From the IMG/VR virus record IMGVR_UViG_2537561980_000012: a stretch of 44,575 nucleotides of DNA. One strand, given 5' to 3'. The position numbers and the translations under genes were made by a program. Positions 917 to 44,575 of this stretch are shown piece by piece. Positions within the stretch are counted from its first letter, which is position 1, and each line of letters begins with the position of its first letter. The DNA is from a virus. Lineage: Duplodnaviria; Heunggongvirae; Uroviricota; Caudoviricetes. The notes beneath the pieces were generated by a model, which ran no database searches, had not been told where the DNA came from, and was given only the letters and a program-made list of their open reading frames with translations.

Positions 917-1089
917 AACTTGTTCCTCCATAGATACCTGACGTCTCTTAGCGCAAGCGCATGGCCCTAACTAAATAAAAAATAACAACCAGTTAGCCCA
1001 GAAAGCTTAACAAGTCGGCGTCCGATTACATGGCAATCAGGTAATCGGTCCGCAGTCGCAAAGCGACAAACTACATATCTACGGAGTGG

Positions 1090-1099
1090 GGATAAATCC
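1090..1099. repeat. IS186 target-site duplication, left copy (ggataaatcc)
   Basis: Identical 10-mer at 2438-2447 directly flanking the IS; reconstructed target ggggataaatcccc fits the known IS186 G-run/N6/C-run preference. Confidence 0.85.
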
Positions 1100-2437
1100 C
1101 ATAAGCGCTAACTTAAGGGTTGAACCATCTGAAGAATGCGACGCCTCGGTGCCTCGTTAAGACGATGCCTCGCGTTCTTCAATTGCGTTTTGTAGGCTGT
1201 CAGGGATACTGTCCCACGAATGGCCACCTGTAAGCTCCAGATGACCATTTTTGTTATTCTCCACAACGAGTTAGTTCTTCTTTTCGGATCCGGCACTTCT
1301 GGGGGGGAAATCCAGCGATGGCTGGATTATGTCGTCAATTAAAAATGCGGCGAGTAGATTAGCAAATATCCACGCTTTCGCGAGTTCAGGTTCCTTTGCA
1401 CGCAAAGCATCCAGGTGCAGCAAACTTTTGAGCCGCTTAAAAGCCAGTTCAATTTGCCATCGCAGACGGTAACAATCAGCCACTTGCTCTGCTGAATATT
1501 CATCTTCCGGTAATGATGTTAGCAATAGCACATGGCCCGCTGCTTCCAGCGTTTCCGCCTGAACTACTCGTCCTTTTCGACGATTCTCGCTGAGCAGTCG
1601 GGTTTTACTGATTAATGCTTTTTCGGGAGGAAGTGATACGGCAATGAGACGTGCCGGAAAGGGAGCTCCGGCTTTTTTATTACCTGAATTGCCTATCATT
1701 ACAGTGGTTTCACCGTTCTTACCGCAATCCAGCCCGCGCAGAAAACCCATCATGTCAAAGCGCATTCCTTCTGCAGTTAACCAGCGCAATCCTCGCCAGT
1801 GAACCCGGACGATATAATCAGCTTCTCCAAAAGCAAGTGAGCGGATACATTCGGGACGCGAACCGAATCCCGGTCAGCAATGCGTATCTCGTCTGCCGTT
1901 TGCGCAAATCGGTCCAGCCGTTCAGCGTCTCTGCTGTCGGTTAGCTCAAAATCAGTGAACTGACAGGTATGAGGATCATATCCCATATGTAGTCGCCATT
2001 CAGCGCTGCCGCCCCCGGGCGCACTGATTGCTGTTCCATCGACAAGACGCAATCTCTTTCCGCTTGTACAACCCGTAACTGCGGCGCGTACAGCAAGTGT
2101 TTGTGCGGCAAGTATGCCAAACCAGTCGGCGGCATTCCGCAGCCGCTTCAGGAGAGCCACGTCAGATAATGTTGCAACGTCATGGAGCTGAGCCCATGCA
2201 GTGACTTCACGTAATGACATCCCCCCGGGGCCGTAAGCCAGCCCCAGACGTAGCAGAGTTGCAGCATCACGAATTTCGCGGCGGCGGGTTAGAGCCCCGG
2301 CATTACGTGCCGAAGTATCCAGTTCTTCGGGCTTACCAATATGGGCCAGAATTGCTGACCAGTTATCGTGAGAGTAATTCATCGGCACGTTAAATCATAT
2401 CAGGCGTAATACCACAACCCTTAAGTTAGCGCTTATG
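1100..2437 (-). mobile_element. IS186 insertion sequence (IS4 family), 1338 bp
   Basis: 23-bp terminal inverted repeats cataagcgctaacttaagggttg (1100-1122) and its reverse complement (2415-2437); length equals canonical IS186; internal ORFs match IS186 transposase. Confidence 0.95.
1271..2382 (-). pseudogene. insL: IS186 transposase, split by a 1-nt deletion in a G/C run (plus 1869-1871)
   Basis: Two ORFs (203 aa, 172 aa) together reproduce the IS186 transposase as I recall it ('MNYSHDNWSAILAHIGKPEEL...', '...RWLTAEGMRFDMMGFLRGL...'); adding one G in 'gaccgggattcgg' restores 'ADRGFGSRPE...HWRGLRWLTAEG'. Confidence 0.9.
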
Positions 2438-2447
2438 GGATAAATCC
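2438..2447. repeat. IS186 target-site duplication, right copy (ggataaatcc)
   Basis: Direct repeat of 1090-1099 immediately outside the right IR. Confidence 0.85.
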
Positions 2448-2525
2448 CCGCTAACGTCAGGCATTGTTAATTTAACCTCAACTTATAGAAAAGTATAGTT
2501 TTAAATCATGTAGTTATGTCGCCAT

Positions 2526-10191: not shown

Positions 10192-12110
10192 TATGCAAAC
10201 TCCTCGATAATACAAATCCCTGAAGCGCCTTTCCCGCCCGTCATACTGGTTCCGCTATAACCGGCATCGTATGCGCCACCTCCGCCTGAACCATATGCTT
10301 TACCGATAACACCACCGCCAGCGCCTGCACGTCCACCGCCGCCCCAGTGCGATGTTCCGCCTTCACCGCTGACGCTGATATTTCCGGACTGACCGTCGCC
10401 TCCATCTCCACCAGTGATGCGGATATCGCCAGTACTCGGCACACCTCCGTTACCGCCGTTTGTGTTTGTAACACCCGCTTTCCCGCCACCTTCGCCACCA
10501 GGAGCAATTAACGATGCGAATACGCTATTCCCGCCCCTGGTGCCGTTCGTCGCACTAACACCACCGGCCCCACCTGCGCCGATAGTGACTGGATAACTAT
10601 TCTGTGTCGGGGTCATTATTGAAATTATTGTTCCACCGGCCCCACCGCCAGCACCGAAAAACGTTTCATTATTGGATGCAGCCTTGCAGCCGCCCCCTCC
10701 GCCACCGCCGCCCGTTATTGTGACCCTGATCCGTTTTGTTCCTGGCGTCGGGGTGTATGTACCTGATGAGGTGAAAACCCGGGTATTCAGCCAGCGTCCA
10801 ACGTATCCACTTGCATCGCTCAGACCAAGATATTGAATAACCGCCTGTGTGCTTGCTTTAGCCAGAATATTCCGTCCAACGTTAGTCAGGGTTGTCAGGC
10901 TGGCTGTATCATTCCCCGTAAAATACGGAAGTTTGTCTGCCGCAGTGGCAAGGCCTGCCAGTGCGGTCAGTGTGGCGTCGGCAGGTTGTTTTCCATTGGC
11001 AAGGTCATATACAGCCTTCACGGCTTTTGGTGTGGCAGCCTGCGTTTCTGACGTGCTGTTAGTGGCGCTGCTGAGTTGCACGGTACCTTTTACCGTCAGT
11101 GAAGCTGCAGGCACATCCGATATCTGGCTCCACGGGTGCGTGTGACTGACAGGTGCCTTACCTGCTGCAAGGTCATATGCCGCCTTCACTGCCTTTGGTG
11201 TGGCAGCCTGCGTTTCTGACGTGCTGTTAGTGGCGCTGCTGAGTTGCACGGTGCCTTTTACCGTCAGTGAAGCTGCAGGCACATCCGTTATCTGATTCCA
11301 CGGGTGTGTGTGACTGACAGGTGCCTTACCTGCTGCAAGGTCATATACAGCCTTCACTGCCTTTGGAGTGGCAGCCTGCGTTTCTGATGTGCTGTTAGTG
11401 GCGCTGCTGAGTTGCACAGTGCCTTTTACCGTCAGCGAGGCTGCAGGTACACCTGTTATCTGATTCCACGGGTGTGTGTGACTGGCGGATGCTTTACCTG
11501 CTGCAAGATCATATGCAGCCTTCACAGCCTTCGGTGTTGCGGCCAGTATTTCGGATTCACTGTTGGTCGCACTGCTTAACTGAGTAAAACCTTTTGCAGT
11601 CAGCGAGGCGTCCGGGTGACGTCGTGACTGTTCGTGCTCTGATATTTTGTCATCCACATACTTGCGGGTTGCCAGCACTACAGCAGGGTCGATTTTCAGG
11701 ATGATATTGTCCGTACTACTGGTAATCAGCACCATGCGCACGGTCTGGGTACGCCCACTGCCTTCAGCCAGTTGCGGCTTATAGCTTTCCGGGCAGTTAC
11801 CCACGGCAATCAATGCCCCGGACTCATCAAACAAGCCCACTTCACGTATCCACCAACCGCCCTCGTTTTCAGGGATCACCTGTTCAGCAATAATCTGGCT
11901 GCTGTTCTGCGGGTCGATATAGAGCATATTCAGCGCAGCCCGGCGTTTCTCATTTACCAGTGCTGTCTGCTTTGCGCCCGGCGTTGGTAATGTTCCGCCG
12001 CCATCGCCGACCGCCATATGGGTAATTTTTAAAGGCACACCGAGCGCGGCGGCGCTGGCAAGTTTCGCCGCGCCAATATCCGTCAGCAGGGTATAAAATT
12101 TTGTGCTCAT
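10191..12110 (-). CDS. H: Tail fibre protein H with internal tandem repeats and Gly-rich C-terminal domain
   Basis: N-terminus 'MSTKFYTLLTDIGAAKLA' like P2 H; 52-aa unit '...SHTHPWNQIT.VPAASLTVKGTVQLSSATNSTSETQAATPKAVKA.YDLAAGKAP.' repeated about 4 times. Confidence 0.9.
   Translation of the reverse strand: MSTKFYTLLTDIGAAKLASAAALGVPLKITHMAVGDGGGTLPTPGAKQTALVNEKRRAALNMLYIDPQNSSQIIAEQVIPENEGGWWIREVGLFDESGALIAVGNCPESYKPQLAEGSGRTQTVRMVLITSSTDNIILKIDPAVVLATRKYVDDKISEHEQSRRHPDASLTAKGFTQLSSATNSESEILAATPKAVKAAYDLAAGKASASHTHPWNQITGVPAASLTVKGTVQLSSATNSTSETQAATPKAVKAVYDLAAGKAPVSHTHPWNQITDVPAASLTVKGTVQLSSATNSTSETQAATPKAVKAAYDLAAGKAPVSHTHPWSQISDVPAASLTVKGTVQLSSATNSTSETQAATPKAVKAVYDLANGKQPADATLTALAGLATAADKLPYFTGNDTASLTTLTNVGRNILAKASTQAVIQYLGLSDASGYVGRWLNTRVFTSSGTYTPTPGTKRIRVTITGGGGGGGGCKAASNNETFFGAGGGAGGTIISIMTPTQNSYPVTIGAGGAGGVSATNGTRGGNSVFASLIAPGGEGGGKAGVTNTNGGNGGVPSTGDIRITGGDGGDGQSGNISVSGEGGTSHWGGGGRAGAGGGVIGKAYGSGGGGAYDAGYSGTSMTGGKGASGICIIEEFA
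10990..11600. repeat. Coding tandem repeats (about 156-bp unit, roughly 3.5 copies) inside tail fibre gene H
   Basis: Near-identical 156-bp blocks starting around 11150, 11306 and 11462 with single-base differences. Confidence 0.8.
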
Positions 12111-23374: not shown

Positions 23375-23896
23375 TCAGTTAATCAGTTTATTTAATGACT
23401 TAGACCACTTCTGTCCCAAATCATCAATATCAAAATCACCATCTCGCTGCTGCCATTTAAAAACTAAGGCTATAAGTTCACTCTTGAGGATTCTTTTATA
23501 ATAATCCTTAGATTTTAATTGCTCAAGTATATGTTCACCAACCTCAGCAAGCTTTCTATGATTTAATTCTGACAGATCTCGATGCAAATGGTTAACTGAT
23601 TTATACAAAGTATTTCCTTCAGTACGAGAAATATCAATACCTTTATCTTCAAACCATTGTGAATCAAGCCAAACCAAATCTATCGTAGCTGGCTCTGACA
23701 TCGTGGTGGCAAGGGCAACAATAATTTTCTCTACCGATTCATCTTGAAAATCGATAGAGTCAGAAACCCAAACTGACAAGGTGTTATTAGAGGTCCTTGT
23801 GCAACCTGTTATCGCGTCTGCGGATATATTGTCAGGTGCTCTACCTTTATTACATTCCCATTTACTATGGGATATTTTACGCAATAAATATGTCAT
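23375..23896 (-). CDS. Hypothetical protein, third gene of AT-rich cargo operon (173 aa)
   Basis: ATG overlaps the upstream stop as TAATG; low GC; no recognisable motif. Confidence 0.7.
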   Translation of the reverse strand: MTYLLRKISHSKWECNKGRAPDNISADAITGCTRTSNNTLSVWVSDSIDFQDESVEKIIVALATTMSEPATIDLVWLDSQWFEDKGIDISRTEGNTLYKSVNHLHRDLSELNHRKLAEVGEHILEQLKSKDYYKRILKSELIALVFKWQQRDGDFDIDDLGQKWSKSLNKLIN

Positions 23897-24543
23897 TATA
23901 GACTTCTCAAATATCCTATAACTGCTTCTTTATATTCTTCCACCCAATCAGCATCAAATTTCCTCATTCTTTCAAGGACTGGAATAAATGATTTTTCCCC
24001 CCAAGACTCAACTGCACGGATCGCTGCCTCAAATATAAGTTCATTCTCAAGAGAACAAACTCCCATAATCATAGCGTCAGCTTTATTACCTAACCATTCA
24101 TATTCAATAGTCGATGCAAAATTAATGAAGTTCTTTACATGTTGATCATTCATTCTGTACAATTGTACCCATGTCCTTTGAAAGGACTCTTGGAATAAAT
24201 CCTGATTTTTATCATACAAGAACTCCATGTAAATCTGTGTCTTGCTTATCTCGCCTTCAATGTAATCTTCTGAACATGTTAACTCAATTAGTCTAGAGGT
24301 ACATTTTGAAACCTGAATTTCAAAGTTCTGCTTAGTTGACGAACCTTGATTTATTGACTCAGTCTCTAATTGAAAGCCACCATTTGTTTTGCTATGTGAC
24401 AGCTCATTTCTTTTAATATCAGCGTAAATGATATTGTTACCATCATAATAATCAGAAAATGCACCTATTGAACTTACCCCATTTTTAAACTTAGGTAAGC
24501 CAAAAGGCTTTTCATCACTTATTATAAAACTATTCTTTACCAT
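23896..24543 (-). CDS. Hypothetical protein, second gene of AT-rich cargo operon (215 aa)
   Basis: Starts 9 nt after the upstream stop with 'aggtga' RBS; no recognisable motif. Confidence 0.7.
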   Translation of the reverse strand: MVKNSFIISDEKPFGLPKFKNGVSSIGAFSDYYDGNNIIYADIKRNELSHSKTNGGFQLETESINQGSSTKQNFEIQVSKCTSRLIELTCSEDYIEGEISKTQIYMEFLYDKNQDLFQESFQRTWVQLYRMNDQHVKNFINFASTIEYEWLGNKADAMIMGVCSLENELIFEAAIRAVESWGEKSFIPVLERMRKFDADWVEEYKEAVIGYLRSL

Positions 24544-24552
24544 AGCATCACC

Positions 24553-25248
24553 TTACAGAGAAGTGTAGCGTTGTAAATTATCAATAGTTTTAAGATTGTC
24601 CTGACACAATAACTCTAGCACGCGGATATATTCATCCCAACCAAACCGCATATATCCATTTTGAGGAAGAGTATTAGTATCAGTTTCAAATAATACGCAA
24701 TCACTTGGCATACCATTATTCAAAAATGGAGCTGAAATTTCAGCGCGTCTAATTGTACTAATACTATTAATTTCTTCCTGATACTCTTCAATATTTTTCC
24801 TTACAGCTATACGATTGTCCCACTCAAATGGATTAACACCTTTATAGGTAAACAAAGCATTGTAAAGCGAAAAGTAAACAGATTCATCCCCTTGATAGAT
24901 ACGTGAATTCAGAACAGCTATCCTATTTCCTTTTTTCATCGGAAATACGTTTTGTAGTTCCCTAGATATAGATAGAACCATTTCTGAAAACGCTTGAGGT
25001 TCCCCCCCCAAACCATTAAAAATGATTCCATGGCTAGGAAACTCGACTCTTACTGTTTGATTGGTATCTACCATGATAAGAATTTGCTTTTTCTCACCAG
25101 TGATGGCATTAATCTCCTGACCAAAAGTAGGTACAAATCCAAATTTTCCAATCTTATCAAGCATAGATCCAATAGTTAGTGTATTTGGAACTATATCATT
25201 ATTATTTGTGAAAAAATTAATCTGATGCGTCTGTTCAATCAATTTCAT
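24553..25248 (-). CDS. Hypothetical protein, first gene of AT-rich cargo operon (231 aa)
   Basis: ATG start with AGGAG 6 nt upstream; no recognisable motif. Confidence 0.7.
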   Translation of the reverse strand: MKLIEQTHQINFFTNNNDIVPNTLTIGSMLDKIGKFGFVPTFGQEINAITGEKKQILIMVDTNQTVRVEFPSHGIIFNGLGGEPQAFSEMVLSISRELQNVFPMKKGNRIAVLNSRIYQGDESVYFSLYNALFTYKGVNPFEWDNRIAVRKNIEEYQEEINSISTIRRAEISAPFLNNGMPSDCVLFETDTNTLPQNGYMRFGWDEYIRVLELLCQDNLKTIDNLQRYTSL

Positions 25249-31664: not shown

Positions 31665-32297
31665 ATGTTAAACATCAGAATGGGTTCCGATACGGGAGGT
31701 AAAGCAGCTATTGAGAGGCTGCTTGCGGCTTATGGATTCACAACTAAGCAGGCATTAAGTGAGCACCTGAATGTCTCAAAAAGCACTATGGCAAACAGAG
31801 TGTTACGTGACAGCTTTCCTGCTGACTGGATAATTCAGTGCGCACTAGAAACCGGTGTTTCGTTGCTTTGGTTAGCTACAGGACAGGGAAGCATGAAAGC
31901 AGGATCTGAGACTGAAAAAAGATCTCATAATGAGAACAAACAAGCAATTAAACCGTTATCTAAACTCATAACTCCATCTATTCCTAAAGGAACCTTGGAG
32001 AATGGACAACTCAGTATTGATGAAGAGATTTTCCTAGACCACAGCATATTACCTGCAAATTATGAAGAATCGATGTTCTTAGAAACCCCTACTGATTGTT
32101 ATCTCATCGATAAATCAGTTAAACAAGTCAGCAATGGATTCTGGCTTATCAATATTGATGGAATGATTATTATTGCAAAAATTATGCGGATTCCCGGCAA
32201 TAAGATTGTAGTAAATCAAGATGAAGCGTCTTTCGAGTGCTCTGCTGATGATGTGGAAGTTATTGGGCGTGCAGTCAAAGTAATAAAGAGTATCTAA
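31665..32297 (+). CDS. cI: CI repressor (186 type, HTH N-terminus plus oligomerisation domain)
   Basis: 210 aa with HTH 'TTKQALSEHLNVSKSTMANRV'; immediately followed by int in the same orientation, as in phage 186. Confidence 0.8.
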   Translation: MLNIRMGSDTGGKAAIERLLAAYGFTTKQALSEHLNVSKSTMANRVLRDSFPADWIIQCALETGVSLLWLATGQGSMKAGSETEKRSHNENKQAIKPLSKLITPSIPKGTLENGQLSIDEEIFLDHSILPANYEESMFLETPTDCYLIDKSVKQVSNGFWLINIDGMIIIAKIMRIPGNKIVVNQDEASFECSADDVEVIGRAVKVIKSI

Positions 32298-32299
32298 AC

Positions 32300-33316
32300 A
32301 TGACTGTCAGAAAACAGCCAAACGGCAAATGGTTGTGTGAGTGCTATCCCAATGGACGCAATGGCAAGCGCGTGCGTAAGCAATTTGCTACGAAAGGAGA
32401 AGCCATTGCTTTTGAAAGCTTCACAATGGAAGAAGTGAATAAAAAACCGTGGCTAGGTGAAAAGGATGATCGGCGACGCCTATCAGAATTAATTGAGCTT
32501 TGGTATTCCCTGTATGGCCAGACACTCGCAGACCCCAAGCGCCTCATGGCGAAACTTAGAATTATCTGTAATGGTCTAGGCGACCCCATCGCCTCAGAAC
32601 TGACAGCCGGTGACTTTACAAAATACCGCGAAGCACGGTTAAAAGGCGACGTTCGTAACGAAGACGGCACACTAATGTCGCCAGTAAAACCACGCACGGT
32701 GAATCTTGAGCAACGTAACCTATCATCGGTTTTCGGCACATTGAAAAAACTAGGCCACTGGTCAGCACCAAATCCTCTCGCCGGGCTGCCAACATTTAAA
32801 ATCGCTGAGGGGGAACTGGCGTTCCTGACCTCGGAAGAAATTAAACGTCTGCTAGATGCCTGCGCTGATTCTCAAAACCCCAGTCTGCTTTTGATTGCAA
32901 AAATATGCCTGGCCACCGGCGCACGCTGGAGTGAAGCCGAAAACCTGCAGGGCCATCAGTTATCTAAATACCGCATCACTTATACCAAGACGAAGGGCAA
33001 GAAAAACCGCACCGTGCCGATATCTCAAGATCTGTATGACGAACTCCCCAAGAACAGAGGGAAGCTATTCACCCCGTGCAGAAAAGCCTTTGAACGGGCA
33101 GTAAAGCGAGCTGGCATCGAGCTGCCAGAGGGCCAATGCACTCACGTGCTACGTCATACATTCGCCAGTCATTTTATGATGAATGGCGGAAACATACTGG
33201 TCCTACGCGATATTCTGGGCCATGCCGATATAAAAATGACGATGATTTACGCCCACTTTTCGCCGGATCATCTTGAAGATGCAGTTACTAAAAACCCTTT
33301 ATGCAACTTAAGATAG
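32300..33316 (+). CDS. int: Tyrosine integrase (P2/186 family)
   Basis: C-terminal catalytic region 'HVLRHTFASHF...LGHADIKMTMIYAHF'. Confidence 0.9.
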   Translation: MTVRKQPNGKWLCECYPNGRNGKRVRKQFATKGEAIAFESFTMEEVNKKPWLGEKDDRRRLSELIELWYSLYGQTLADPKRLMAKLRIICNGLGDPIASELTAGDFTKYREARLKGDVRNEDGTLMSPVKPRTVNLEQRNLSSVFGTLKKLGHWSAPNPLAGLPTFKIAEGELAFLTSEEIKRLLDACADSQNPSLLLIAKICLATGARWSEAENLQGHQLSKYRITYTKTKGKKNRTVPISQDLYDELPKNRGKLFTPCRKAFERAVKRAGIELPEGQCTHVLRHTFASHFMMNGGNILVLRDILGHADIKMTMIYAHFSPDHLEDAVTKNPLCNLR

Positions 33317-33632
33317 AGTAACTTATGAAAATAAACTCAAATTATTTACAAATATAATATTCAGCAGGTTATCCATTCTTATTTAACTCTTCAGACTGAG
33401 ATTAGATTTTATTTATAGAATAAGATAATTTCATATCACAAAAAACCTGTAAGCCCTCATCTTTGTTGTATAAAAACATAAAAGATGCCATATTTAAAAA
33501 AGTAGAAAAGCATTGCAATGCAACATTAAAAATAAACCAATAAAAACCAGTCATTAGAAAATGAAAAAAAAACAAAAACATTTTTTATCAAAGCTTCAGT
33601 CTGACTACTAGTTGGACTCTGCAATTAACTAT

Positions 33633-33662
33633 CAAGATGATCAATATTTATTGATCATCTTG
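33633..33662. repeat. 30-bp near-perfect palindrome containing two GATC sites
   Basis: 'caagatgatcaata tt tattgatcatcttg', 14-bp arms; 34 nt downstream of the deaminase gene stop. Confidence 0.6.
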
Positions 33663-33695
33663 AAGTTGCCCTCAGGAAAGATGAGTATAATATTT

Positions 33696-35438
33696 CTACT
33701 CAAGAAGATATTCTAACTCATCTTTTATCGGGATAACTTGCTCATAAAGTCGGTGATATGACTTCCCAATTGCGCCTCTGAATTGTATTAACTTTGGTGG
33801 CTTGTTACCTATATTAATAATATGGTCTTGAGCTATACCTGGGTAGGGATCAATAAATACAATTTCAGATATACCTAACTGATAAGCTTTTTTCGCACAC
33901 AGCTCACAGGGACTGGCAGTTGTATATAACCTCCCCCCCTGAACGCCAATGCCACCATATTTTGCAAGTTGTAAAAATGCGTTTTCCTCAGCATGTAATG
34001 CACGTGTATGAACTTGATTACCTTTTTTATCTTTATCAAGATCATTATGTATATCTTTAAAACAATAAGATAAGTTCCTGCCTCTATAAATATCACCAGT
34101 TTTATCTATCGCCCTAAAATTTAATAGTTTCTCATTAGCTTTAATTCTGAAAGAACTATTATTTCTCTCATAATGACTGTACACTTTTTCATCAAAGTCG
34201 TTCATTAGGCCATCTAGCGATCTCATAGAGCAAGGAATCTGACCGTTGGCGACATCATTCCAACCCACTGATTTTATTGAATTTTCACCATCAGTTACTA
34301 CAGCTCCCACCTGTCTAGATATACAACCAGAGTTTAATTTTACCGTATACGCAACTTGCATAACCCTTTCCATTGCAGTAGGTGTTATCAGACCAGGATG
34401 CTTCATCAGTGCGATGTACCACGCTAATTGTGCTTTTAAAATATTGTCATTATCAAATTCATTTTTTGGGTTAAAAATGTGTATATCTGATAGTTCAATG
34501 CATTTAGTTACATTTGGATTAGTGAGATGTTTGTAAGAGTTATCACCTTTACCTGACTCTACAGAATCTATTTCCTCTATCTGCTTTTCAGAAAACTTAT
34601 GTAGTTTCCGCAAATAGTTTGTTCGATGTTCATCTGGGGCATTTATTGACATTAAATGAAATGCAGAATATCTATCCTTAAAAAATTTTGCTTCATATGG
34701 ATTTCTAATAGCATCTATGACAATTAATGCGTTATCTCTTTTGCTTTTTCTTATTAATTTAATAACCCTATTAATAGTTTCCGGCAAATGAAAAACAGAT
34801 TTAGGTATAAACTCTTTATCTTCAAAATCGACTTCAATACGCCCACGGCGTCTAATTGACTTACCTGCTAACTGATAGACTGAAACATATAAATTTGAGT
34901 TTATCGCATTTAGTTCAGCTTTGAATTCCTTAGTAAATTTTCTAACTAACCTCAAAATTGATATAAATTTATTAATCGTTTTTTCATTAAGCTTCAATTC
35001 ACTATTATGATCAAGCAAATTCTCAATTACATTTTTAAATCTTGTTAAAATGAGATTATCTGAAAATACACCAAAAGTTAATACATTATCTAAATGCTCT
35101 TTACTGATAGATTTATTAGATGATAGAATAAACTCAGAAGCTTCTTCAACTGTTAACATCAAAAGATACGCTGAGATTAGGTCACTCACCTTAATTGAGT
35201 AAAAATTTTCCCAGTGATTTTCTGCGAATTTTTTAACTATATTATAACGATGGACATCCAATCCCTTGTAAAAACCCTGTAATTTACTTACATCAGGGAA
35301 GACTGTTTTTTCGTTTTCAAGAATATTAGCTGTTGTTGTGCAACCAGAACCAGTTCGACCTGTCAAACCGACTAAAATAAACTGCCCATTTTCAAGGAAA
35401 AGCTCACTAACGAATTTTTTTCTTTCATCACGTCCCAC
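33696..35438 (-). CDS. P-loop nucleotide kinase fused to cytidine/dCMP deaminase (AvcD / defensive dCTP-deaminase type)
   Basis: N-terminal Walker-A-like 'GLTGRTGSGCTTT'; C-terminal zinc-deaminase motifs 'HAEENAF' and 'PCELCAKKA'. Very low GC. ORF as given starts at GTG; an ATG at 35426-35428 becomes in-frame if the T7 run at 35415-35421 is one base short. Confidence 0.75.
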   Translation of the reverse strand: MGRDERKKFVSELFLENGQFILVGLTGRTGSGCTTTANILENEKTVFPDVSKLQGFYKGLDVHRYNIVKKFAENHWENFYSIKVSDLISAYLLMLTVEEASEFILSSNKSISKEHLDNVLTFGVFSDNLILTRFKNVIENLLDHNSELKLNEKTINKFISILRLVRKFTKEFKAELNAINSNLYVSVYQLAGKSIRRRGRIEVDFEDKEFIPKSVFHLPETINRVIKLIRKSKRDNALIVIDAIRNPYEAKFFKDRYSAFHLMSINAPDEHRTNYLRKLHKFSEKQIEEIDSVESGKGDNSYKHLTNPNVTKCIELSDIHIFNPKNEFDNDNILKAQLAWYIALMKHPGLITPTAMERVMQVAYTVKLNSGCISRQVGAVVTDGENSIKSVGWNDVANGQIPCSMRSLDGLMNDFDEKVYSHYERNNSSFRIKANEKLLNFRAIDKTGDIYRGRNLSYCFKDIHNDLDKDKKGNQVHTRALHAEENAFLQLAKYGGIGVQGGRLYTTASPCELCAKKAYQLGISEIVFIDPYPGIAQDHIINIGNKPPKLIQFRGAIGKSYHRLYEQVIPIKDELEYLLE

Positions 35439-35623
35439 TTATGAATGTAAGAATATTCAACATATTAATTATAATTTATTAACTCATTTTGTTCTAGATA
35501 CTTGATGTAATGGCGGCACTTTGGCGACGGAGCATTAAAAACGCGTAAGACGAGCAAATACAACAAAACACTAACACATTGTTTTTAAATATAAATAGCT
35601 GTTTTTACTATACTAAAAATGGT

Positions 35624-35661
35624 ATGTAGGAATTTCGGACGCGGGTTCAACTCCCGCCAGC
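35624..35661 (+). other. 38-nt copy of the ssrA (tmRNA) 3' end: attachment-site remnant
   Basis: 'atgtaggaatttcggacgcgggttcaactcccgccagc' matches the E. coli ssrA 3' end as I recall it but lacks the terminal 'tccacca' and all upstream ssrA sequence. Confidence 0.8.
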
Positions 35662-35823
35662 CAATCATGATTGGACGGTATAAGGACAACACCAATAAAA
35701 ACAGTAAGTTAGCAGTCTCAGCAGGACACCGACCAGACGGTGAAGAGACATAAAAGGATACGCAAAGGAGCCGCGGCTCCTGGTGACATGAAAGCCCACA
35801 GATGTGGGCTTTTTCGTTGATGG

Positions 35824-38800
35824 TCAGAACGACCAGTTCACACCAGCTACCCCGTTCCACGGGGATTCCACACCGGCACCATGGCTATACCCCACCCCAA
35901 GATGCCCGCTTAACGTACTGCTGAATGAGGCTTTAATACCTGCCTGGTATATTCCACGTCTGCCCGACAAATCATTGACGAAATTACCGTCACTATTCAC
36001 TTTCACCCGGTTATCATCGACAAATTCTTTGCGCACAGCCGCCTTCAGCCACGGCTCAACTTCCATACCGTTCCCCAGACGCATGTTGTAACTCAGCGTT
36101 GCACCCAGTTCACGATATAAACTGCGGGTATCGACTGATTTCGATTCCATGCCATTGGATAAATGATATTCAGGGTTATCAGCGGTGAACCCCCGTTAAC
36201 GATGCATACGGCGTCAGGTTCCAGTTACCATCGGTAAATCGCATCCCGGTTTCAATGTGACCGCCCAGCCCGTAGCTGCGATAACTGCCGTTGGCGGCTC
36301 CACCGCTGCCAACCGTGGAGTCGCGAGCTTCGGTACCTGCTAATACCAATAAATTACCGCCATTTTCCAGCAACATATTGGTCGCTAAATTGCCGGAAAT
36401 GGAAAAAGTGCCGTACTGGTGAGTACCGCTGATTTCAATACCGTTAGCCGTGCTCGTCTGGAGAGCGGCACCGCTGTTCTGGACGATATCTGTCGCTTTG
36501 CCATTATCGTTAACTGTCAGCGTACCGCCTTCATTGATCTTTGTTTTTATTGCCTCTCCGTTAGCTGAAACTGTTTGTATTCCGCCGTCGTTAATCGTTG
36601 TCTCATTCGCCACCCCCTCGACGATTTGTTCGCCGCCGGTGAGCGTCGTGCCTGTCGCAGTGGCTTTTGTTTTGACGATCTCCCGTCCGCCCGTATTGAC
36701 CTGTGTTTTGTCAGAAGAGGTGTCTGACTCCACGGTTAACACGCCGCCATTTGCCAGCAGGATATTGTTCGCCGCACCCTGCTCGATGCTGAACGCGACG
36801 CCATCCGCGCGTGTTCCTGTGACCCGCGTCGCCCTGGTGGTTGCAACCAAAGCGCCCTGGCTACTCTGCTGTATCCCCGTTGCGCTGCCTTTCTCCCGCA
36901 CATCGAGTGTGCCGCCGTCATTAAGCACCGAGTTTTCAGCCAGACCGCCCTCATTAACTACCTGTGAACACCCATTAATAATGGAACCTTCCGCTATCCC
37001 GTTTGCCATAATTTGTTGTAGGCCAGAGACGATATCGGTATTGATCGCCTTACCATAATTCTGAACGGTTTGTGTGCCGCCATTGATGTGCGTTTTGTCA
37101 GTTGACCCACCATCAACAATTTGTTCACCACTTTCAATATTTGCCTCAGTGGCTAAACCATATACCGTTTGCTTGCCACCTTTGATATTTGCTTTATCAG
37201 AAGTGGCACTGGCATATATTGTTTGGGTGCCAGCACTATTAAGTACAGTGCCAACATCTTTTCCATAAACATCCATTTTGCCGTTGGCATTAATAATCGT
37301 ATCAACTGCCCGGGAACCAGTGACGACTGTTAATGAGCCAGCGTTTTCCAGCACTACATTTTTAGCTTCTGAATTCCTGATGTAGAAAGCATCACCATAA
37401 CTGTTGGTTCCTTCGATAAGGGTTCCGGAAGTTGTGGAAGCAATTAATGCGCCGCCGGATTGTTGCTCAACATGCTTAGCCTCACCACCGTCCTGAACCT
37501 CCAGAACGCCACCATTATTAAGTCTGGTGGTATCTGTTTTAGCCTCCTTCTGGACAATCAGCTTACCGCCAGCATCAACGGTAGTATTTTTCGCCGAGGT
37601 TTTAGCCACTACCGTCAGTTCGCCGGTATTTTCCAGCACAACATAATTAGCCTCCCCTCCGGTAATAGTGAAGTGAGAGAGCTTGTTGTATCCTTCAATA
37701 TCAGTCCCTGCGCCCGTGTTGGCAACTAAAGCACTGCCCGTCTCCTGGTTAACCCCATGTGCAATACCGCCGGTATAGACAATCAGCGAGCCTCCGGCGC
37801 TAATATTGCTGCCAATTGCCGTACCATCTTTCTCAACAACTTGCTGGCTCCCGGAGGATATAATTGTTGTGTCAGCTTTCCCACCGCTTTTGATATTTTG
37901 CGTTCCGCTGTTGATATTGGTGCCTGTGGCTATGCCATAATTATTAAGATTCTGTGTGCCACCATTAATTATGGTATTTGTCGCGTTTCCTGCAACATCC
38001 ATAACCCCGCCATTATCTATTCGGGTCGCATCAGCTTTAGCATTCGTTAAAACTGACATTGTTCCTTTATCTTTAATAATCGTCTTGTTTGCGGAATGAG
38101 ATACTTCTAAATGGCCTCCATTTTCCAGCAACACATTGTCTTCCACTTTATTGTGGATGGAGAATGCACCTTCACTATTCGTACCGCTCACCGTCGTACC
38201 GTTAGTGTTTGTTTTTAAAATTGCACCATCGTGCTGGGTAACATTTGTTGCCGTACCACCACTAACATCAAGCACGCCACCGGAATAAACTTCAATAACA
38301 TCCGAGGTGCTGGTGTTATTAACAATTTGCGTGCCACCAGAATAGATCTGCGTAATTTTTGCCGTTGACTTACTATTCAGAGACTGAGTTCCGCCTTCAA
38401 TCGTCGTGTCCAGCGCACGGCTCTCATATACTCTTTGCTCACCGCCATTTTTAATGGTTGTTGTTTCTACTGTGCTCTGTTCAACATACTGTCGACCACC
38501 ATTTATGGTTGTGTTCGTTGCCAGACTTCCTTGTACTACGTCCTGAGAGCCAGACTTATTTATCGTTGTACCATCAGCATGCCCTTGAACTTTTACTATC
38601 TGGCTACCACCATCAATGAGTATTCCATTCGCACTCCCTCCCTCTACGCGTGAAGCACCGCCCTTAATTGTCGTTCCATTGCTGATACCCCCTTTATAAA
38701 CGTCCTGATTGCCACTCTCGATTGTCGTACCTGTGGAAATACCCCCGTCATGAATTGACTGTCTGCCACCGTTAATGGTTGTATTATTAGCCTGCCCCAC

Positions 38801-39088
38801 AAAATTGTTATGACTTCCTATATCTTGATATCCACCAGATTCAATAAGACTTCCATTAGATACCCCGCCATGAACATTCTGCTGGCCATGGTTGATAATA
38901 TGAGTGTTATTTGTTGTACCTCGTTCATCCACTTTTTGGTTGCCATCTACAGTCTCATCGTTTACCACACCAATAACATCAGGAGTGAAGGCCGCCATAC
39001 CGGGCGGGGCATATATCAAGGCAGATATCAATAAGGAAAGTACTGAGCGGCGACAATAATGGGGACTGGTCCTGTTCATAAATTTCAT
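35824..39088 (-). CDS. Autotransporter adhesin (repeat-rich passenger plus C-terminal beta-barrel), frameshifted at a C5/G5 run (plus 36190-36194)
   Basis: Extended signal peptide ('MKFMNRTSPHYCRRSVLSLLISALIYA'), Gly/Thr/Asn-rich passenger repeats, barrel ending in terminal 'NWSF'; removing one G joins the 1009-aa ORF to the 108-aa C-terminal ORF. Resembles the ypjA neighbourhood of E. coli K-12. Confidence 0.85.
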
Positions 39089-39417
39089 CCTCTGAAAAGT
39101 GAATACTGAGTAGCGTTTAAGCGACCTTAGCTCTGCTGCAACATCAGCCCACAGGCACCAGACCAGGGGATTCATCCTGAAGAGACAGCGCAAGTGTATT
39201 GTGTTCACCGCTCATCAAAGACATCATGATGAAATGATGATATTCCACATAAGAAAGAAGCATTTTTTAAACGCAGTGCGCTGAAGTATGGTTGGATAAA
39301 AAAGTCAATCTATTCAGGGAATACGGGGGTATTCTTTTCTTTCGACAATCAGGTCGTCGGCAAAATAAAATGATTTACATAATCGTTTCTGATGAATATC
39401 TTCTGCTCACATAAAAA

Positions 39418-39657
39418 TCACACAATAACTTTGAGATCGCAGATTCTTTTACTTTTACAGCATTCGTCCCCCCATTGTTGGGCAAATATAGATTGGGCCA
39501 GAGCACGAAAGTTAATACCACGTTTGCACAGCTCCTCCAACAGCACGACAAGATGCCACATACTGCGCCCCAGTCGGTTCGGTTTACAGACTACCCGTGC
39601 GTCCACCGCCGATAATGTCCTGAGCAGTTTTTTCAGTCCGGACCTCCTGCCACGGTT
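39418..39657 (-). pseudogene. Serine DNA invertase (Pin/Hin family) fragment
   Basis: 'GLKKLLRTL...RVVCKPNRLGRSMWHLVVLLEELCKRGINFRALAQSI' matches Pin 'GLKRALKRL...[37 protein letters not shown]'; no intact N-terminal catalytic region or C-terminal HTH. Confidence 0.75.
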
Positions 39658-39991
39658 TTACGTTGAAGAGGTAACCCTGAGCACGCAGTTCATCAGTCAG
39701 GCGTGGTGTACCGTAACCCTATTATTGATGGGTAAGATCAAAAAAACTTTCAGGCAGCTAAGGAAAGTTGAACCAGACATTAGAATAAATATTTCAACCA
39801 ATTACAGCACCAATTCAGACACCGCCAGCTCAACAAATAAATCAAGGGGTTACGTGAAAGCGTAGCCCCTTTTTCTTTGGTAGTGGCAGCAAAATGGTTG
39901 TAGTGTAAAAAATAATCCCGTTTAATCAATCAATAATACATATTGTTTCAATCTACGTTATTATCTCTTTGTAAAAATAGCCATTTATTAA

Positions 39992-41365
39992 TCATTGAAA
40001 ACTGCTTTTAGAACTTGATACAACGGGACTAGTCACAACAGGACTATTCTCAACGGGATCATCCTCAGAGGAACTATCATCAAAGTCATCATCCATAAAT
40101 AAAATATCATCGAATGGTGCCACGCCCGTGATGAGTTTTATTTTATTATTACGATCAGTCAAGACTCCACTTAAACCGTTTTCGCTCACAGGTTTTAATG
40201 ATTTTTCATTACTCTTGTTGTAAGCAGGCGCATTAAAAATACACGGAGTATCAAGATCAAACAATGACGTTCCCCAGTTCACATATTGAATATCATAGTT
40301 ACTGAAGTTCTGTCCAGAAAAGAAGCATCCCTTAAAATCCAATCCACCTAAATTATATAAACCATCCTCTTCTTTTTGGAGAGTAATGTTAATTTTGGCT
40401 ATCTCCCGGACATCATCGCCATTTTTATATTTGAATACCGTTTCAAGATTTTCCCCACACAGTTTGACTTCTGGAAATAATTTGAAATCAAAGCCTATAT
40501 TATTATGTATCAACGTAGATGAACAAAAGATGGAGAAAGCTTGCAGTGCTGAATTATAGCTTTCGATTTTATCCTGAGGCTGCGCTCTTGGTAAAAACTC
40601 ATAGCAACATTCATAAAAATTAAGTAGAAACTCTGAAGACCTTCCATTTTTATCAAATAATATCCCCTTGAACTCATTCACAAACGCATCTTTTTTTTCT
40701 TGAATATCTATGGGGTGTTCCTTTGACTCTGACAAAGATGAAATCTCATCTATTTTGTTTTCATATGAATTACGTGATTCCATACAGACATTTGGCGGCG
40801 TTTCTAAAATAACACTACGCGTACTACTTGGCTTAAGTAAACCAACATGAAAATCACTTTTTCTTATATTATCGAAAAGGTTCTGTTCATTTCTTTTAGC
40901 GCATTCAAAAAACTGATCGGCATTATTTTTATTCGATAATTTTTTAGTTTCAGAAAACACATTTTCATTGTTTTCCAGCTTTAGTTTAATGAGAAGATTT
41001 TCCCAGGCCTGCTTGCTTAAACATATTACGTCAGGCTCACCAGAACTAACTAACTCGTGATTATTATTAAAGTGTACGTTGAATACCTTTAAGTTATTTT
41101 CACCAACTTCATATTTAATACGTTTTAATTGTTCTCCAGCTCCCATAATGACAAAGGCGTTGCCTTCTTGATATATACATTCAGACATCATTTTTTGTAA
41201 AGTTTCAAGAGCACCGCGATACGTCTCTGATGCAGCTTCCTTACAAATTAATTTTAAAATACTATGAGCTAGTAGCTCCATGTGTTTAGAAGATTTATTT
41301 TCATTATAACTTCCACTACCCAAAACTGCGCTAGCGTTAAATCCGTTGCTTTTACTAACTAACAT
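39992..41365 (-). CDS. Hypothetical AT-rich protein (457 aa) with acidic C-terminal tail
   Basis: Long ORF, low GC, Asn/Lys-rich; no catalytic motif recognised. Confidence 0.6.
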   Translation of the reverse strand: MLVSKSNGFNASAVLGSGSYNENKSSKHMELLAHSILKLICKEAASETYRGALETLQKMMSECIYQEGNAFVIMGAGEQLKRIKYEVGENNLKVFNVHFNNNHELVSSGEPDVICLSKQAWENLLIKLKLENNENVFSETKKLSNKNNADQFFECAKRNEQNLFDNIRKSDFHVGLLKPSSTRSVILETPPNVCMESRNSYENKIDEISSLSESKEHPIDIQEKKDAFVNEFKGILFDKNGRSSEFLLNFYECCYEFLPRAQPQDKIESYNSALQAFSIFCSSTLIHNNIGFDFKLFPEVKLCGENLETVFKYKNGDDVREIAKINITLQKEEDGLYNLGGLDFKGCFFSGQNFSNYDIQYVNWGTSLFDLDTPCIFNAPAYNKSNEKSLKPVSENGLSGVLTDRNNKIKLITGVAPFDDILFMDDDFDDSSSEDDPVENSPVVTSPVVSSSKSSFQ

Positions 41366-42116
41366 TGTCTATTCCTCAATTAATGTCTACATGGCTATTT
41401 TTAATTTTATTATTGTTTGTCACTATAAAAAATCGCTCATTTGAGACAATTGCTGGCATTAACAGCTTCATATGCTATACATGGTACTTTTAATTAAATT
41501 AGCACAAGAATGTTAAATTTAATAAACAAAAAGTTATTTCGCTGTATGATAAAAACCACCCGTTATAATTTATTAGTGAAATTCGTTTTTCGAGTGTTAG
41601 AAATTTATATCTCAATAGCGTTGGTTAATGAGCATAGCCACGCTCCTGTAACGCTCACAAAACTCATCTGCCTGCGGCGGGTGTTCTGGTCAGTAGTAGA
41701 TGTTTAAGGCGTGGCAGAGACATTTCATCCTTACTCTACGGCATTGTTCTACATACATTGGTTGTGGTACTCACTCATCATCAGTGAGCGAACAGAGAAT
41801 AGTTCAGTGATTTGAGTAATTAACCTGATTAAATTAAGGGGTATAATAAATGATAATACTCTGGCTTTATCGTTAATTACTTAATTCCACATGTAAGCAA
41901 TTTGCCCGCTTGGCATAGCGGGCATTTTTTCCAGGTACTTTTGAATGAGTACTGATGGATAAATACATTGCAGTGGCGTGCCACGTACCAAAACACCAGC
42001 CCTCATTCGAAACAACCCACCGCACTTCTTCCTTGAAATGGCGTTAGTCATGAAATATAGACCGCCATCGAGTACCCCTTGTACCCTTAACTCTTCCTGA
42101 TACGTAAATAATGATT

Positions 42117-42192
42117 TGGTGGCCCTTGCTGGACTTGAACCAGCGACCAAGCGATTATGAGTCGCCTGCTCTAACCACTGAGCTAAAGGGCC
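42117..42192 (-). tRNA. ileY: tRNA-Ile2 (anticodon CAU, ileX/ileY type)
   Basis: Minus strand reads 'GGCCCTTTAGCTCAGTGGTTAGAGCAGGCGACTCATAATCGCTTGGTCGCTGGTTCAAGTCCAGCAAGGGCCACCA'; cloverleaf with CAT anticodon and encoded CCA. Confidence 0.9.
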
Positions 42193-42751
42193 TTGAGTGT
42201 GCAATAACAATACTTATAAACCACGCAATAAACATGATGATCATATGATGTAAATAACAGATTTTTATGCGTTCTCATTCATCCTTGCTCGTCATTACAC
42301 GCGACATAAAACCCGACACCGCTTCCATTCGCAAAGTCGATACTCGCAGTCAACAAGCAAATGTTAATAATTAGCACTATCTATAGTTATCATCGATTCA
42401 ATGATACTTTGTAATGATTTTGTATCTAATAATATAAGTTTATTACATTAACTGAAGAGTTTTCGCATCATTATGATATCTGTTACTTTTCACTCCATAA
42501 AAATAAACTTCGTATAGCAATATATTCTTTCATAGATCTTATTCTGCTAATCATTAGTTTCGTATGAGCGATTTTTGACAGTTGCCTCTCCAGACCACAT
42601 CGATAATTAATAAAACAGATTTAAGCATTATCCTTTTCCATATAAATATTGGATAAAAGTAGGACATCTGTTTGCAATTACTTTCACAACAATTAAACAT
42701 TTTTATGTTTCCGTATACATCATATTACTCTACCATTAGAGGAACTTTATT

Positions 42752-44575
42752 ATGTTTTCTATAAAACCAGGACCCAGAAATTTACCTATCGACAACCCCA
42801 CATTGTTATCATGGAACATTACTGACGGGGATCTAAATTCCAAATTAAATACATTAGAATATCTAAACTGTATAACAAATATTATTAATTCTTGTGGAGT
42901 TTACCCTCAAGGATTAAAAGACAGAGAAATTATATCAACTTTTCACGCAGAAAAAGTTATTAATGATCTGTTAAAAAACGATTATAAAATTTCCCTTTCT
43001 CCAGATACAACTTATCGAGAGTTGAATAAAGCAGCACAGCGTAGCATTACAGCGCCAGACAGGATAGGAGAAGGAAAATCATGGGTTTATCAAAGAGATA
43101 CAATGATTGAAAGAGGTGATAACAGCGGTGTTCATCAGTATGGTCCTGCTGAACATTTCACCCACATTATATCTGACAAACCGTCCCCAAAAGATGAGTA
43201 TATTGCATATGCTATTAACATTCCTGACTATGAGCTGGCAGCCGATGTATATAATATTAACGTGACGTCACCTTCCGAACAGCAAGAAACATTTAAAATA
43301 CTAATCAATCCAGAACATCTACGGCAAACACTTGAGCGTAAATCTCTTACTGCTGTTCAGAAATCACAATGTGAAATCATAACCCCCAAAAAACCTGGCG
43401 AAGCGATTCTTCATGCTTTTAATGCCACCTACCAGCAAATCAGGGAAAATATGTCTGAGTTTGCACGTTGCCATTATGGGTATATACAAATCCCTCCAGT
43501 GACAACTTTCCGCGCCGACGGACCAGAAACTCCCGAAGAAGAAAAGGGTTACTGGTTTCATGCTTATCAACCCGAAGATCTTTGTACCATCCATAATCCA
43601 ATGGGAGATTTGCAGGATTTTATTGCATTGGTTAAAGATGCTAAAAAATTTGGTATCGATATCATTCCTGATTATACCTTTAACTTTATGGGAATTGGGG
43701 GTAGTGGTAAAAATGACCTGGATTATCCCTCTGCTGATATACGAGCGAAGATCAGTAAAGATATAGAAGGTGGTATCCCTGGCTATTGGCAAGGTCAGGT
43801 TTTGATTCCATTCATTAAAGATCCAGTAACAAAAGAACGTAAACAAATCCATCCAGAAGATATACATCTCACTGCAAAAGACTTCGAAGCAAGTAAAGAT
43901 AACATCTCTAAGGATGAATGGGAAAACCTCCATGCATTAAAAGAAAAGCGTTTAAATGGAATGCCTAAAACAACACCCAAAAGTGACCAGGTTATTATGT
44001 TGCAAAATCAATACGTTCGTGAAATGCGAAAATATGGCGTACGAGGTTTACGTTATGATGCGGCAAAACACTCAAAACATGAACAAATAGAAAGATCAAT
44101 AACCCCACCGCTTAAAAATTATAATGAGCGGTTACACAATACTAACTTATTTAACCCAAAATATCATAAAAAAGCCGTTATGAATTACATGGAATATCTG
44201 GTAACTTGTCAGTTGGATGAACAACAAATGTCATCACTGCTTTATGAAAGAGATGATTTAAGCGCCATTGATTTTTCATTGCTCATGAAAACGATAAAAG
44301 CCTTTTCATTTGGTGGAGATCTTCAAACCCTTGCATCAAAACCGGGTTCCACAATCTCAAGTATCCCATCAGAAAGACGGATATTGATTAACATTAACCA
44401 CGATTTTCCTAACAATGGTAATCTTTTCAATGACTTTCTATTTAACCATCAACAAGATGAACAATTAGCAATGGCATATATAGCCGCTCTGCCGTTCAGC
44501 AGGCCTTTAGTTTACTGGGATGGCCAAGTACTGAGAGATCCCCTCATAATTTCCCCAAAGCGTAACCATGTGTGA
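42752..44575 (+). CDS. Alpha-amylase-like (GH13 family) protein, 607 aa
   Basis: 'GVRGLRYDAAKH' resembles GH13 region II 'GFRLDAAKH'; 'GIDIIPDYTFNFMG' resembles region I; low GC; context matches the ygaQ region next to ileY in E. coli K-12. Confidence 0.6.
   Translation: MFSIKPGPRNLPIDNPTLLSWNITDGDLNSKLNTLEYLNCITNIINSCGVYPQGLKDREIISTFHAEKVINDLLKNDYKISLSPDTTYRELNKAAQRSITAPDRIGEGKSWVYQRDTMIERGDNSGVHQYGPAEHFTHIISDKPSPKDEYIAYAINIPDYELAADVYNINVTSPSEQQETFKILINPEHLRQTLERKSLTAVQKSQCEIITPKKPGEAILHAFNATYQQIRENMSEFARCHYGYIQIPPVTTFRADGPETPEEEKGYWFHAYQPEDLCTIHNPMGDLQDFIALVKDAKKFGIDIIPDYTFNFMGIGGSGKNDLDYPSADIRAKISKDIEGGIPGYWQGQVLIPFIKDPVTKERKQIHPEDIHLTAKDFEASKDNISKDEWENLHALKEKRLNGMPKTTPKSDQVIMLQNQYVREMRKYGVRGLRYDAAKHSKHEQIERSITPPLKNYNERLHNTNLFNPKYHKKAVMNYMEYLVTCQLDEQQMSSLLYERDDLSAIDFSLLMKTIKAFSFGGDLQTLASKPGSTISSIPSERRILININHDFPNNGNLFNDFLFNHQQDEQLAMAYIAALPFSRPLVYWDGQVLRDPLIISPKRNHV

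Follow-up and report, generated by a model that had tools for sequence, protein, structure and literature searches.

[quoted passage not shown] A P4-like element of Shewanella, CP4So, provides a second point of reference: its attR lacks one T, and its excision yields SsrA-delU, in which the U of the G·U pair is missing (PMC5148205). In P2-like prophages, the interval between int and the attachment site has been reported as a defence hotspot (PMC13586616, NAR 2026); the excerpts of that survey drawn on here make no mention of the slot between att and ogr, of ssrA, of the deaminase or of reverse transcriptases (RTs). Here, we analyzed a 44,575-nt stretch of viral DNA (IMG/VR record IMGVR_UViG_2537561980_000012), referred to in its entirety as the window, which carries a short copy of the ssrA 3' end. 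We conclude with high confidence that this fragment is the attR core of a single Fels-2-like (186-type, Peduoviridae) prophage residing in the ssrA 3' end, with an anti-phage deaminase gene and an RT module as its cargo.

The fragment lies at positions 35624-35661 on the plus strand (ATGTAGGAATTTCGGACGCGGGTTCAACTCCCGCCAGC) and is exactly identical to nucleotides 319-356 of the 363-nt ssrA of Escherichia coli CV839-06, covering part of helix 12, the T-arm and the first bases of the acceptor 3' strand. It starts 2.3 kb beyond the int stop at 33316. No second ssrA-like copy was present in the window at up to three mismatches, and 100 shuffles gave 0 matches. The Rfam tmRNA model produced a local match at 35597-35667 (E=1.1e-8) whose score lies below the gathering score, as expected because only a fragment is present, and neither ARAGORN nor Rfam at the gathering threshold called a tmRNA gene in the window. 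The first-pass annotation had described a 38-nt copy of the tmRNA 3' end 2.3 kb past int and no full ssrA within the window; the copy proved to be an exact, single match, and the statement on ssrA agrees with both searches.

Similarity to ssrA extends past position 35661. Aligned to an empty site, the window has the sequence ...CCCGCCAG[-----]CCAATCATG, against ...CCCGCCAGCTCCACCAATCATG in attB; over a longer span, the attB side is ...GAGGATGTAGG...CCCGCCAGCTCCACCAATCATGATTGGACGG (strain 210205630) and the window side is ...TGGTATGTAGG...CCCGCCAG-----CCAATCATGATTGGACGG. The exact match is thus limited to 38 nt because five nucleotides, CTCCA, are absent from the displaced ssrA end. Alignment with attB of 210205630, attL of CV839-06 and attP of the phages Cartapus, Fels-2 and RE2010 delimits a full attR core at 35624-35664 (+), of which the 38-nt copy forms the left part. 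This core corresponds to the 46-nt Fels-2-type core (ATGTAGG...CCACCAA) minus CTCCA, with the deletion junction at 35660/35661. The common core from ATGTAGG to CCACCAA measures 46 nt and the Fels-2 record annotates 24+23 nt (47); of these 47 bp, the first 38 nt and the last 4 nt are kept and five internal nucleotides are deleted. As judged from these alignments, the site is a complete displaced ssrA 3' end followed by its native downstream flank, with a 5-nt deletion, hereafter Δ5. The sequence after 35661 was also considered as the hybrid or decayed site of an older element, and this was rejected, as the empty-site alignment resolves it into native flank and a 5-nt gap. An att repeat may therefore appear shorter than the real core, which calls for caution.

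The window is a piece of E. coli chromosome, and the position of the intact gene was deduced from closely related genomes. CV839-06 (NZ_CP025753.1) shares 100% identity with window positions 1-1100 and 99.6-99.96% elsewhere, the insertion sequence (IS) excepted, and two porcine ETEC strains are equally near-identical. Relative to CV839-06, the window has a 1,336-bp IS186/IS421, one fewer 168-nt tail-fibre repeat, a few SNPs and four single-base deletions; the best IS-bearing relatives are 98.9% identical to the window, and no near-identical genome carries the IS186-bearing version at 100%. The RefSeq gene order of CV839-06 begins with smpB, ssrA, 108 nt, RT, a small ORF, ogr, D and the tail, lysis and head genes, continues with Q, three hypothetical genes, DinI, A, Dam ... 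CII, an Apl-like gene, CI, int and the anti-phage dCTP deaminase, and closes with ypjA fragments, a pin fragment, ypjCB, tRNA-Ile, an amylase-like pseudogene and glaH. The ssrA of this strain has the orientation of the fragment, and its end is separated from the RT stop codon by 108 nt, which fall left of window position 1. By this gene order, intact ssrA should lie directly left of position 1, where the first-pass annotation had placed it, and the leftward extension suggested there, carried out by way of CV839-06, met ssrA and the attL core. In the strain of the window, attL and the P' arm would accordingly be located left of position 1, as deduced from the near-identical genomes, and the expected sequence is a P' arm of about 108 nt (AATAAATCAATGGGTTACGTGAAAGCGTAGCCC..., GGTAGTGGCGGCAAAATGGCGGCAGG) and then an intact ssrA ending in CCAGCTCCACCA.

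The opposite boundary was defined by genomes with an uninterrupted site. Searching with the fragment and its flanks identified many genomes in which ssrA is continuous with the flank to the right of the fragment. In strains 210205630 and WB61, which carry no island, smpB-ssrA is joined straight to the flank that resumes at window position 35661, and 210205630 has the order smpB, ssrA, autotransporter fragments, pin fragment and ypjCB. By comparison with 210205630, the DNA from ssrA to window position 35664 is inserted, consistent with the earlier proposal that everything between ssrA and the fragment is inserted DNA: both strains join ssrA directly to the ypjA/pin/ypjCB flank. The chromosomal neighbours said to follow CP4-57 in K-12 were likewise recovered in an O16:H48 K-12-type strain, where this flank and ypjA come next after the right end of CP4-57 (ypjF).

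Native chromosome to the right of attB occupies positions 35665-44575 and comprises a deleted ypjA/ehaD, the pin fragment, ypjCB, the ileY tRNA(CAT) gene and an amylase-like pseudogene. Between attB and ypjA, a GC-rich hairpin with a T run (35789-35815, AAAGCCCACAGATGTGGGCTTTTT) gave only weak, sub-threshold Rfam matches (isrB, rsmX) and is probably a terminator. The ypjA/ehaD autotransporter gene (35824-39208) has an internal deletion of about 1.3 kb; it is intact (4.6 kb) in strain 5735 and is annotated in CV839-06 as a pseudogene plus a separate beta-barrel ORF. The sole tRNA in the window, tRNA(CAT) at 42117-42192 (-), was called tRNA-Met (CAT) by ARAGORN, and the identical gene is annotated as tRNA-Ile (ileY, a lysidine-modified tRNA) in the RefSeq record of CV839-06. 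This gene is listed as the attachment site of phage 186 (PMC3448106), and in the window it is present without any inserted element.

A P2/186-like prophage body spans positions 2526-31269, as delineated from the CV839-06 RefSeq annotation and the ORF list. Its structural part includes ogr, D, U, T, E, FII, FI, tail fibre, baseplate, lysis and head genes, P and Q, and the remainder consists of a three-ORF variable locus, DinI, A, Dam, CII and an Apl/Rha-like gene. The tail-fibre gene (10999-11576) contains diverged 168-nt tandem repeats, one unit fewer than in CV839-06, and most SNPs cluster there. The three ORFs of the variable locus (173, 215 and 231 aa; 23375-25248, -), between the DinI/gpA region and the portal gene Q, had no PADLOC or Pfam match and are candidates for an undescribed system in what is the main published P2 defence hotspot. 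To the right of the body, the CI repressor gene (31665-32297, +; ORF list and CV839-06 annotation) adjoins a tyrosine integrase gene of the Fels-2/186 type (32300-33316, +; Pfam Int_N and Phage_integrase), which has 83-87% nucleotide identity to int of Fels-2, Cartapus, RE2010, SEN8 and Klebsiella phages.

Megablast of positions 32300-35700 against deposited phages returned two separate matching pieces, namely int and a segment of about 150 nt at 35511-35661, in Fels-2, SopE-phi, RE2010, SEN8, Cartapus, Yersinia MLG42 and several Klebsiella phages. The attP-derived P arm (35507-35623, +; 117 nt) forms the inner prophage edge on the int side; it is homologous from end to end with the 117 nt that separate the int stop from the core in Fels-2, and multiple alignment extends this homology to the arms of Cartapus and RE2010. 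On the other side, the sequence following ssrA in CV839-06 aligns with the P' arms of the same three phages and contains a terminator-like hairpin and TGGCGGCA repeats. From the repeated TGGCGGCA-like motifs in the P arm, we infer that these are integrase arm sites. The P arm bears directly on whether the fragment might instead be the fossil att scar of an older element (e.g., CP4-57), with the right end of the present prophage located elsewhere. Such an origin could be entertained given that Δ5 with its flank is an old chromosomal allele common to strains with other elements, and that the K-12 CP4-57 right end has the same flank. We nevertheless regard it as extremely improbable, since the 117 nt immediately left of the fragment are a Fels-2-type arm, ssrA identity begins at the same point (ATGTAGG) as in attP of Fels-2, Cartapus and RE2010, and the core is shorter and the arms are different in CP4-57 and in the UTI89 element.

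The assignment of the fragment to the resident Fels-2-like prophage implies a conventional integration scheme. The phage attP would bear a 46-47-nt copy of the ssrA 3' end between two arms of about 115 nt. Recombination by Int would place the phage-borne core copy, together with the phage terminator, on the chromosomal ssrA at attL, to the left of the window, and because a phage-borne 3' end is joined to ssrA there, the gene would stay functional. The original chromosomal 3' end of ssrA would be moved to the far side of the prophage, becoming attR at 35624-35664. The prophage would then extend from attL in ssrA to window position 35664, which fixes its boundaries.

Whether this inserted DNA represents one composite prophage or tandem elements had been left as an either/or in the first-pass annotation. 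The stretch from the int stop to the P arm holds the deaminase gene, and that from the P' arm to ogr holds the RT module; the attP arms thus enclose both, as phage cargo in two attP-flanking slots and not as separate islands. In Fels-2 the P arm follows directly on the int stop, whereas 2.2 kb of cargo is found here at that point. Cartapus, whose record is contiguous across attP, has the order int, RES-domain protein, attP, putative exonuclease and ogr, and the int slot of RE2010 is filled by a 1.2-kb gene; SEN8 and MLG42 appear, from their match spans of about 1.17 kb, to have no int-slot cargo. Taken from these other phages, both positions flanking attP are variable cargo slots. The tandem arrangement would require the deaminase gene and/or the RT module to be remnants of separate ssrA islands, not packaged with the prophage. 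Tandem arrays do exist at ssrA, as illustrated by strain TUM1887, in which the phage lies upstream of a CP4-57-type integrase remnant. The authors of PMC13586616, in the excerpts drawn on here, also regard cargo at the int-att position as unusual for integrated elements, and no copy of the deaminase gene was detected in deposited phage genomes by megablast or tblastn, which yielded only distant homologues (≤29% identity, tblastn).

Several observations nevertheless speak against tandem elements. Neither the RT-ogr interval nor that from int to the deaminase gene contains a further ssrA-like copy (≤3 mismatches), and without an internal att copy the sequence lends tandem elements no support. 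The conserved attP arms lie outside both cargo genes, and the contiguous Cartapus genome has other cargo in the same two slots. In TUM1887, int, deaminase, P arm and core are identical to those of the window and are followed by the CP4-57-type integrase remnant instead of ypjA; the deaminase therefore travels with the phage and not with the flank. The Klebsiella record Kp4845-2 opens on the P arm, contains an RT module with 99.7% identity and closes with the P' arm, 106 nt past the RT stop, so that the RT falls inside an arm-bounded unit. We thus judge the tandem arrangement to be very improbable and already largely refuted, and of the two earlier options only the composite prophage is retained, with arms that enclose its cargo and no att copy within. 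Because deaminase and RT module are part of the phage genome, both defence genes should move horizontally with the virion.

The cargo gene between int and attP (33696-35428, -) belongs to the anti-phage dCTP deaminase family according to NCBIfam equivalog NF041025 (423.7 bits against a cutoff of 400) and the PADLOC dCTPase model (E=4.9e-145), with a Pfam zinc deaminase domain at residues 354-526. Its anti-phage role is predicted from these family models. All 20 complete E. coli genomes with the deaminase carry a single chromosomal copy.

The cargo of the att-ogr slot starts at position 1 with an RT gene (1-774, -; 257 aa; Pfam RVT_1, E=2e-21). Its best PADLOC model is a retron RT of type VI (RT_VI, 6.6e-18) and its sole Pfam domain is the generic RVT_1, while its score against the NCBIfam retron models is 49.5 bits versus a cutoff of 235. 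The RT module recurs at 99.7% identity in 13 Klebsiella phage records, and STY2879 of S. Typhi has been described as a 99%-similar RT (PMC4409374). Overlapping the RT start is a 57-aa ORF with a hydrophobic stretch (743-916, -), which had no family match in PADLOC or Pfam and is a possible retron accessory or effector protein. In the uninterrupted allele of CV839-06, about 200 nt upstream of this small ORF fold with -67.7 kcal/mol (z=-3.5) and contain 11-nt inverted repeats (a1/a2) 161 nt apart, with UAGC straight after a1. No Rfam retron RNA family matched upstream of the RT, and the region looks like a retron msr-msd by its folding and repeats. In the window, this RNA is present as a 3' part at 934-1100 (-), with the a2 repeat at 934-944, and a 5' part at 2437-2464 (-), with the first stem, UAGC and the a1 repeat at 2454-2464.

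The two parts are separated by IS186/IS421 (IS4 family; 1101-2436; 1,336 bp), which is absent from CV839-06. The element has terminal inverted repeats CATAAGCGCTAACTTAAGGGTTG and a target duplication GGATAAATCC inside GGGGATAAATCCCC; its target is of the GGGG(N6)CCCC type, and its transposase is of the IS4 type. It sits 6 nt after UAGC, in the GGGGATAAATCCCC palindrome that forms the first msr-like stem, and divides the promoter-proximal 28 nt (2437-2464) from the rest of the retron-like RNA (934-1100). As the RNA is split and the RT is cut off from the upstream promoter region, the retron-like system is likely to be inactive in the strain of the window. The transposase reading frame (1271-2388) is itself split into two ORFs of 172 and 203 aa, where the whole form has about 370 aa, owing to either a further frameshift or a sequencing error. 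The diverged prophages of FDN-24 and 5735 (98.5-98.9% identity) have an annotated IS421 at this very site, suggesting either that the target is preferred or that the insertion is old. The first-pass annotation, correct in its overall reading, had overlooked two features: this interruption of the retron-like RNA upstream of the RT, and the 5-nt deletion that underlies the 38-nt limit.

Four single-T deletions relative to CV839-06 each cause a frameshift. They affect the tail sheath gene FI (9342, T7 to T6), replication gene A (gpA; 27256), the Apl/Rha-like gene (31399, T7 to T6) and codon 5 of the dCTP deaminase gene (35415, T8 to T7). In the last case, the frame from the annotated ATG is shifted after codon 4, and the open frame in the window extends to a GTG at 35438. 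A full P2-type set of morphogenesis, lysis and replication genes is annotated in CV839-06; in the window, FI, gpA and the Apl-like gene are frameshifted. Three of the four deletions are homopolymer contractions and are therefore possibly assembly errors; taken together, the four may reflect assembly or sequencing errors or real decay. If real, they would render the prophage defective and its excision moot, and would leave the deaminase without its annotated start.

The distribution of Δ5 was examined with a 48-nt probe spanning the gap-free junction, applied to 5,426 complete E. coli genomes. The junction was found in 173-179 of them (~3%), including the ST95 strains UTI89, S88, APEC O1 and IHE3034. 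Most genomes with the P arm of the window have a full core, and 5735 and TUM1887 lack one T; among the P-arm genomes, Δ5 occurs only in CV839-06, ETEC1731, ETEC1747 and CAVP773, and in CAVP773 it stands beside a different P-arm variant. In UTI89, the junction adjoins a different integrase, a different arm and a shorter core. The island-free strain WB61 (NZ_CP020025.1; locus L013, 3670-4040) has a smpB-adjacent ssrA that ends in ...CCCGCCAGCCAATCATG and runs into ypjA, and ARAGORN calls a tmRNA there only with the 5' end shifted 48 nt upstream; WB61 is presumably a tmRNA-defective strain or an excision scar. This distribution is most simply explained by Δ5 belonging to the chromosomal (B') side, as an allele that predates integration, and the same pattern would place the integrase crossover to the left of the deletion.

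Δ5 could instead have arisen in place after integration, in which case it would kill attR and lock the prophage in, and would not be a pre-existing allele moved by excision. That only the four P-arm genomes named above are shortened, with close relatives having a full core or a 1-nt deletion, is compatible with such an origin, as are the freedom of a displaced copy to decay and a possible overlap of the deletion with the B' core-type Int site. An in-place origin is nonetheless unlikely, since the identical junction accompanies three different elements on its left and is also present in WB61, within an ssrA that has no island, a pattern that fits inheritance on the chromosomal side with exchange of elements. 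Two further explanations, CTCCA as a recurrent mutational hotspot at the Int cleavage site and Δ5 as a phage-borne attP variant with a crossover to the right of the deletion, were rejected in favour of the simpler chromosomal allele: deletion states do not track P-arm variants, and the junction is shared by an unrelated integrase element and by an ssrA without an island. A single-T loss (CCAGC-CCACCA), the lesion known from CP4So, was observed in the displaced ssrA ends of TUM1887 (L008, 6949-7010), 5735 (L007, 3137-3180) and the K-12-type strain (L003, ~3000). In TUM1887, the single-T end is followed by a CP4-57-type P' arm and not by the ypjA flank, which a simple B'-allele model does not fully explain. 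The ST95 element at ssrA in UTI89 (L015, 315-3349) has three genes between int and attR, encoding a hypothetical protein, a STAS-like domain protein and another hypothetical protein, and this trio may occupy another int-att cargo slot.

On the chromosomal-allele reading, the deletion has consequences for tmRNA. Δ5 removes CUCC of the acceptor 3' strand (Rfam consensus CAGCUCC) and the discriminator A, taking most of the 3' strand of the acceptor stem, including the U of the G3·U pair. The pair that G3 forms with its partner is the alanine identity pair of tmRNA. From established tmRNA biology, a tmRNA with the Δ5 end should not be chargeable. The prophage would then supply the only functional ssrA 3' end, and since the displaced chromosomal end carries Δ5, prophage loss should leave a defective ssrA; precise excision would leave a non-chargeable (null) gene. 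We tentatively propose, as a possibility that falls somewhat short of being probable, that in Δ5 lineages the element resident at ssrA supplies the sole functional tmRNA 3' end, so that lysogeny maintains or repairs trans-translation and excision nulls ssrA. On the same reading, WB61 appears to be a case of an excision-made null ssrA. If true, retention of the prophage and its anti-phage cargo would be coupled to tmRNA function. "Empty" ssrA sites, too, should be viewed with caution, as they may carry tmRNA-inactivating scars.

Compared with described systems, the arrangement is ordinary and of a known kind, a Fels-2-type prophage with its attR in a displaced ssrA end and defence genes in the slots beside attP, and it leaves the current understanding of ssrA-targeting elements unchanged. 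What is added here are the exact boundaries, the resolution into a single element, the Δ5 allele with its likely effect on excision, and IS186 in the retron-like RNA. Fels-2 and SopE-phi (Salmonella, Felsduovirus) share with this prophage an int of about 84% nucleotide identity, homologous arms, the 46-47-nt ATGTAGG...CCACCAA core and the orientation, with ogr beside the intact ssrA and int beside the displaced fragment. Fels-2 differs in that neither attP-flanking slot contains a gene, where the present element carries the deaminase, the RT module and IS186, and in its complete core, whereas the attR core here lacks 5 nt. Cartapus (Elveevirus) and RE2010 have the same layout of int, attP and ogr, with cargo exactly between the int stop and the P arm, and Cartapus also has cargo between attP and ogr; its RES-domain protein and putative exonuclease take the places held here by the deaminase and RT. 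With respect to the int-att hotspot, as portrayed in the excerpts of the survey cited above, the deaminase occupies the corresponding slot, so that this prophage offers a worked example of that hotspot and points to a matching att-ogr slot across attP.

The RT module resembles retrons in that the RT is preceded on the same strand by a structured region of about 180 nt with 11-nt inverted repeats and UAGC, and in its best PADLOC match, the type VI retron RT; it departs from them in an RT score far below the NCBIfam retron cutoffs, an accessory ORF without a family and an RNA split by IS186. CP4So of S. oneidensis and CP4-57 of K-12 are P4-like, whereas the present element is a P2-family phage with a different integrase, a longer core and a 5-nt lesion, and excision, shown for CP4So, is a prediction for the prophage described here. 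All three are alike in that the displaced ssrA end at attR is mutated, and attR of the K-12-type CP4-57 carries a single-T loss, the same lesion as in CP4So. If the proposed effect of Δ5 is true, the mechanism by which excision of CP4So and CP4-57 switches ssrA off would also hold for a P2-family phage and for a second lesion, larger than the single-T loss and carried by about 3% of sequenced E. coli.
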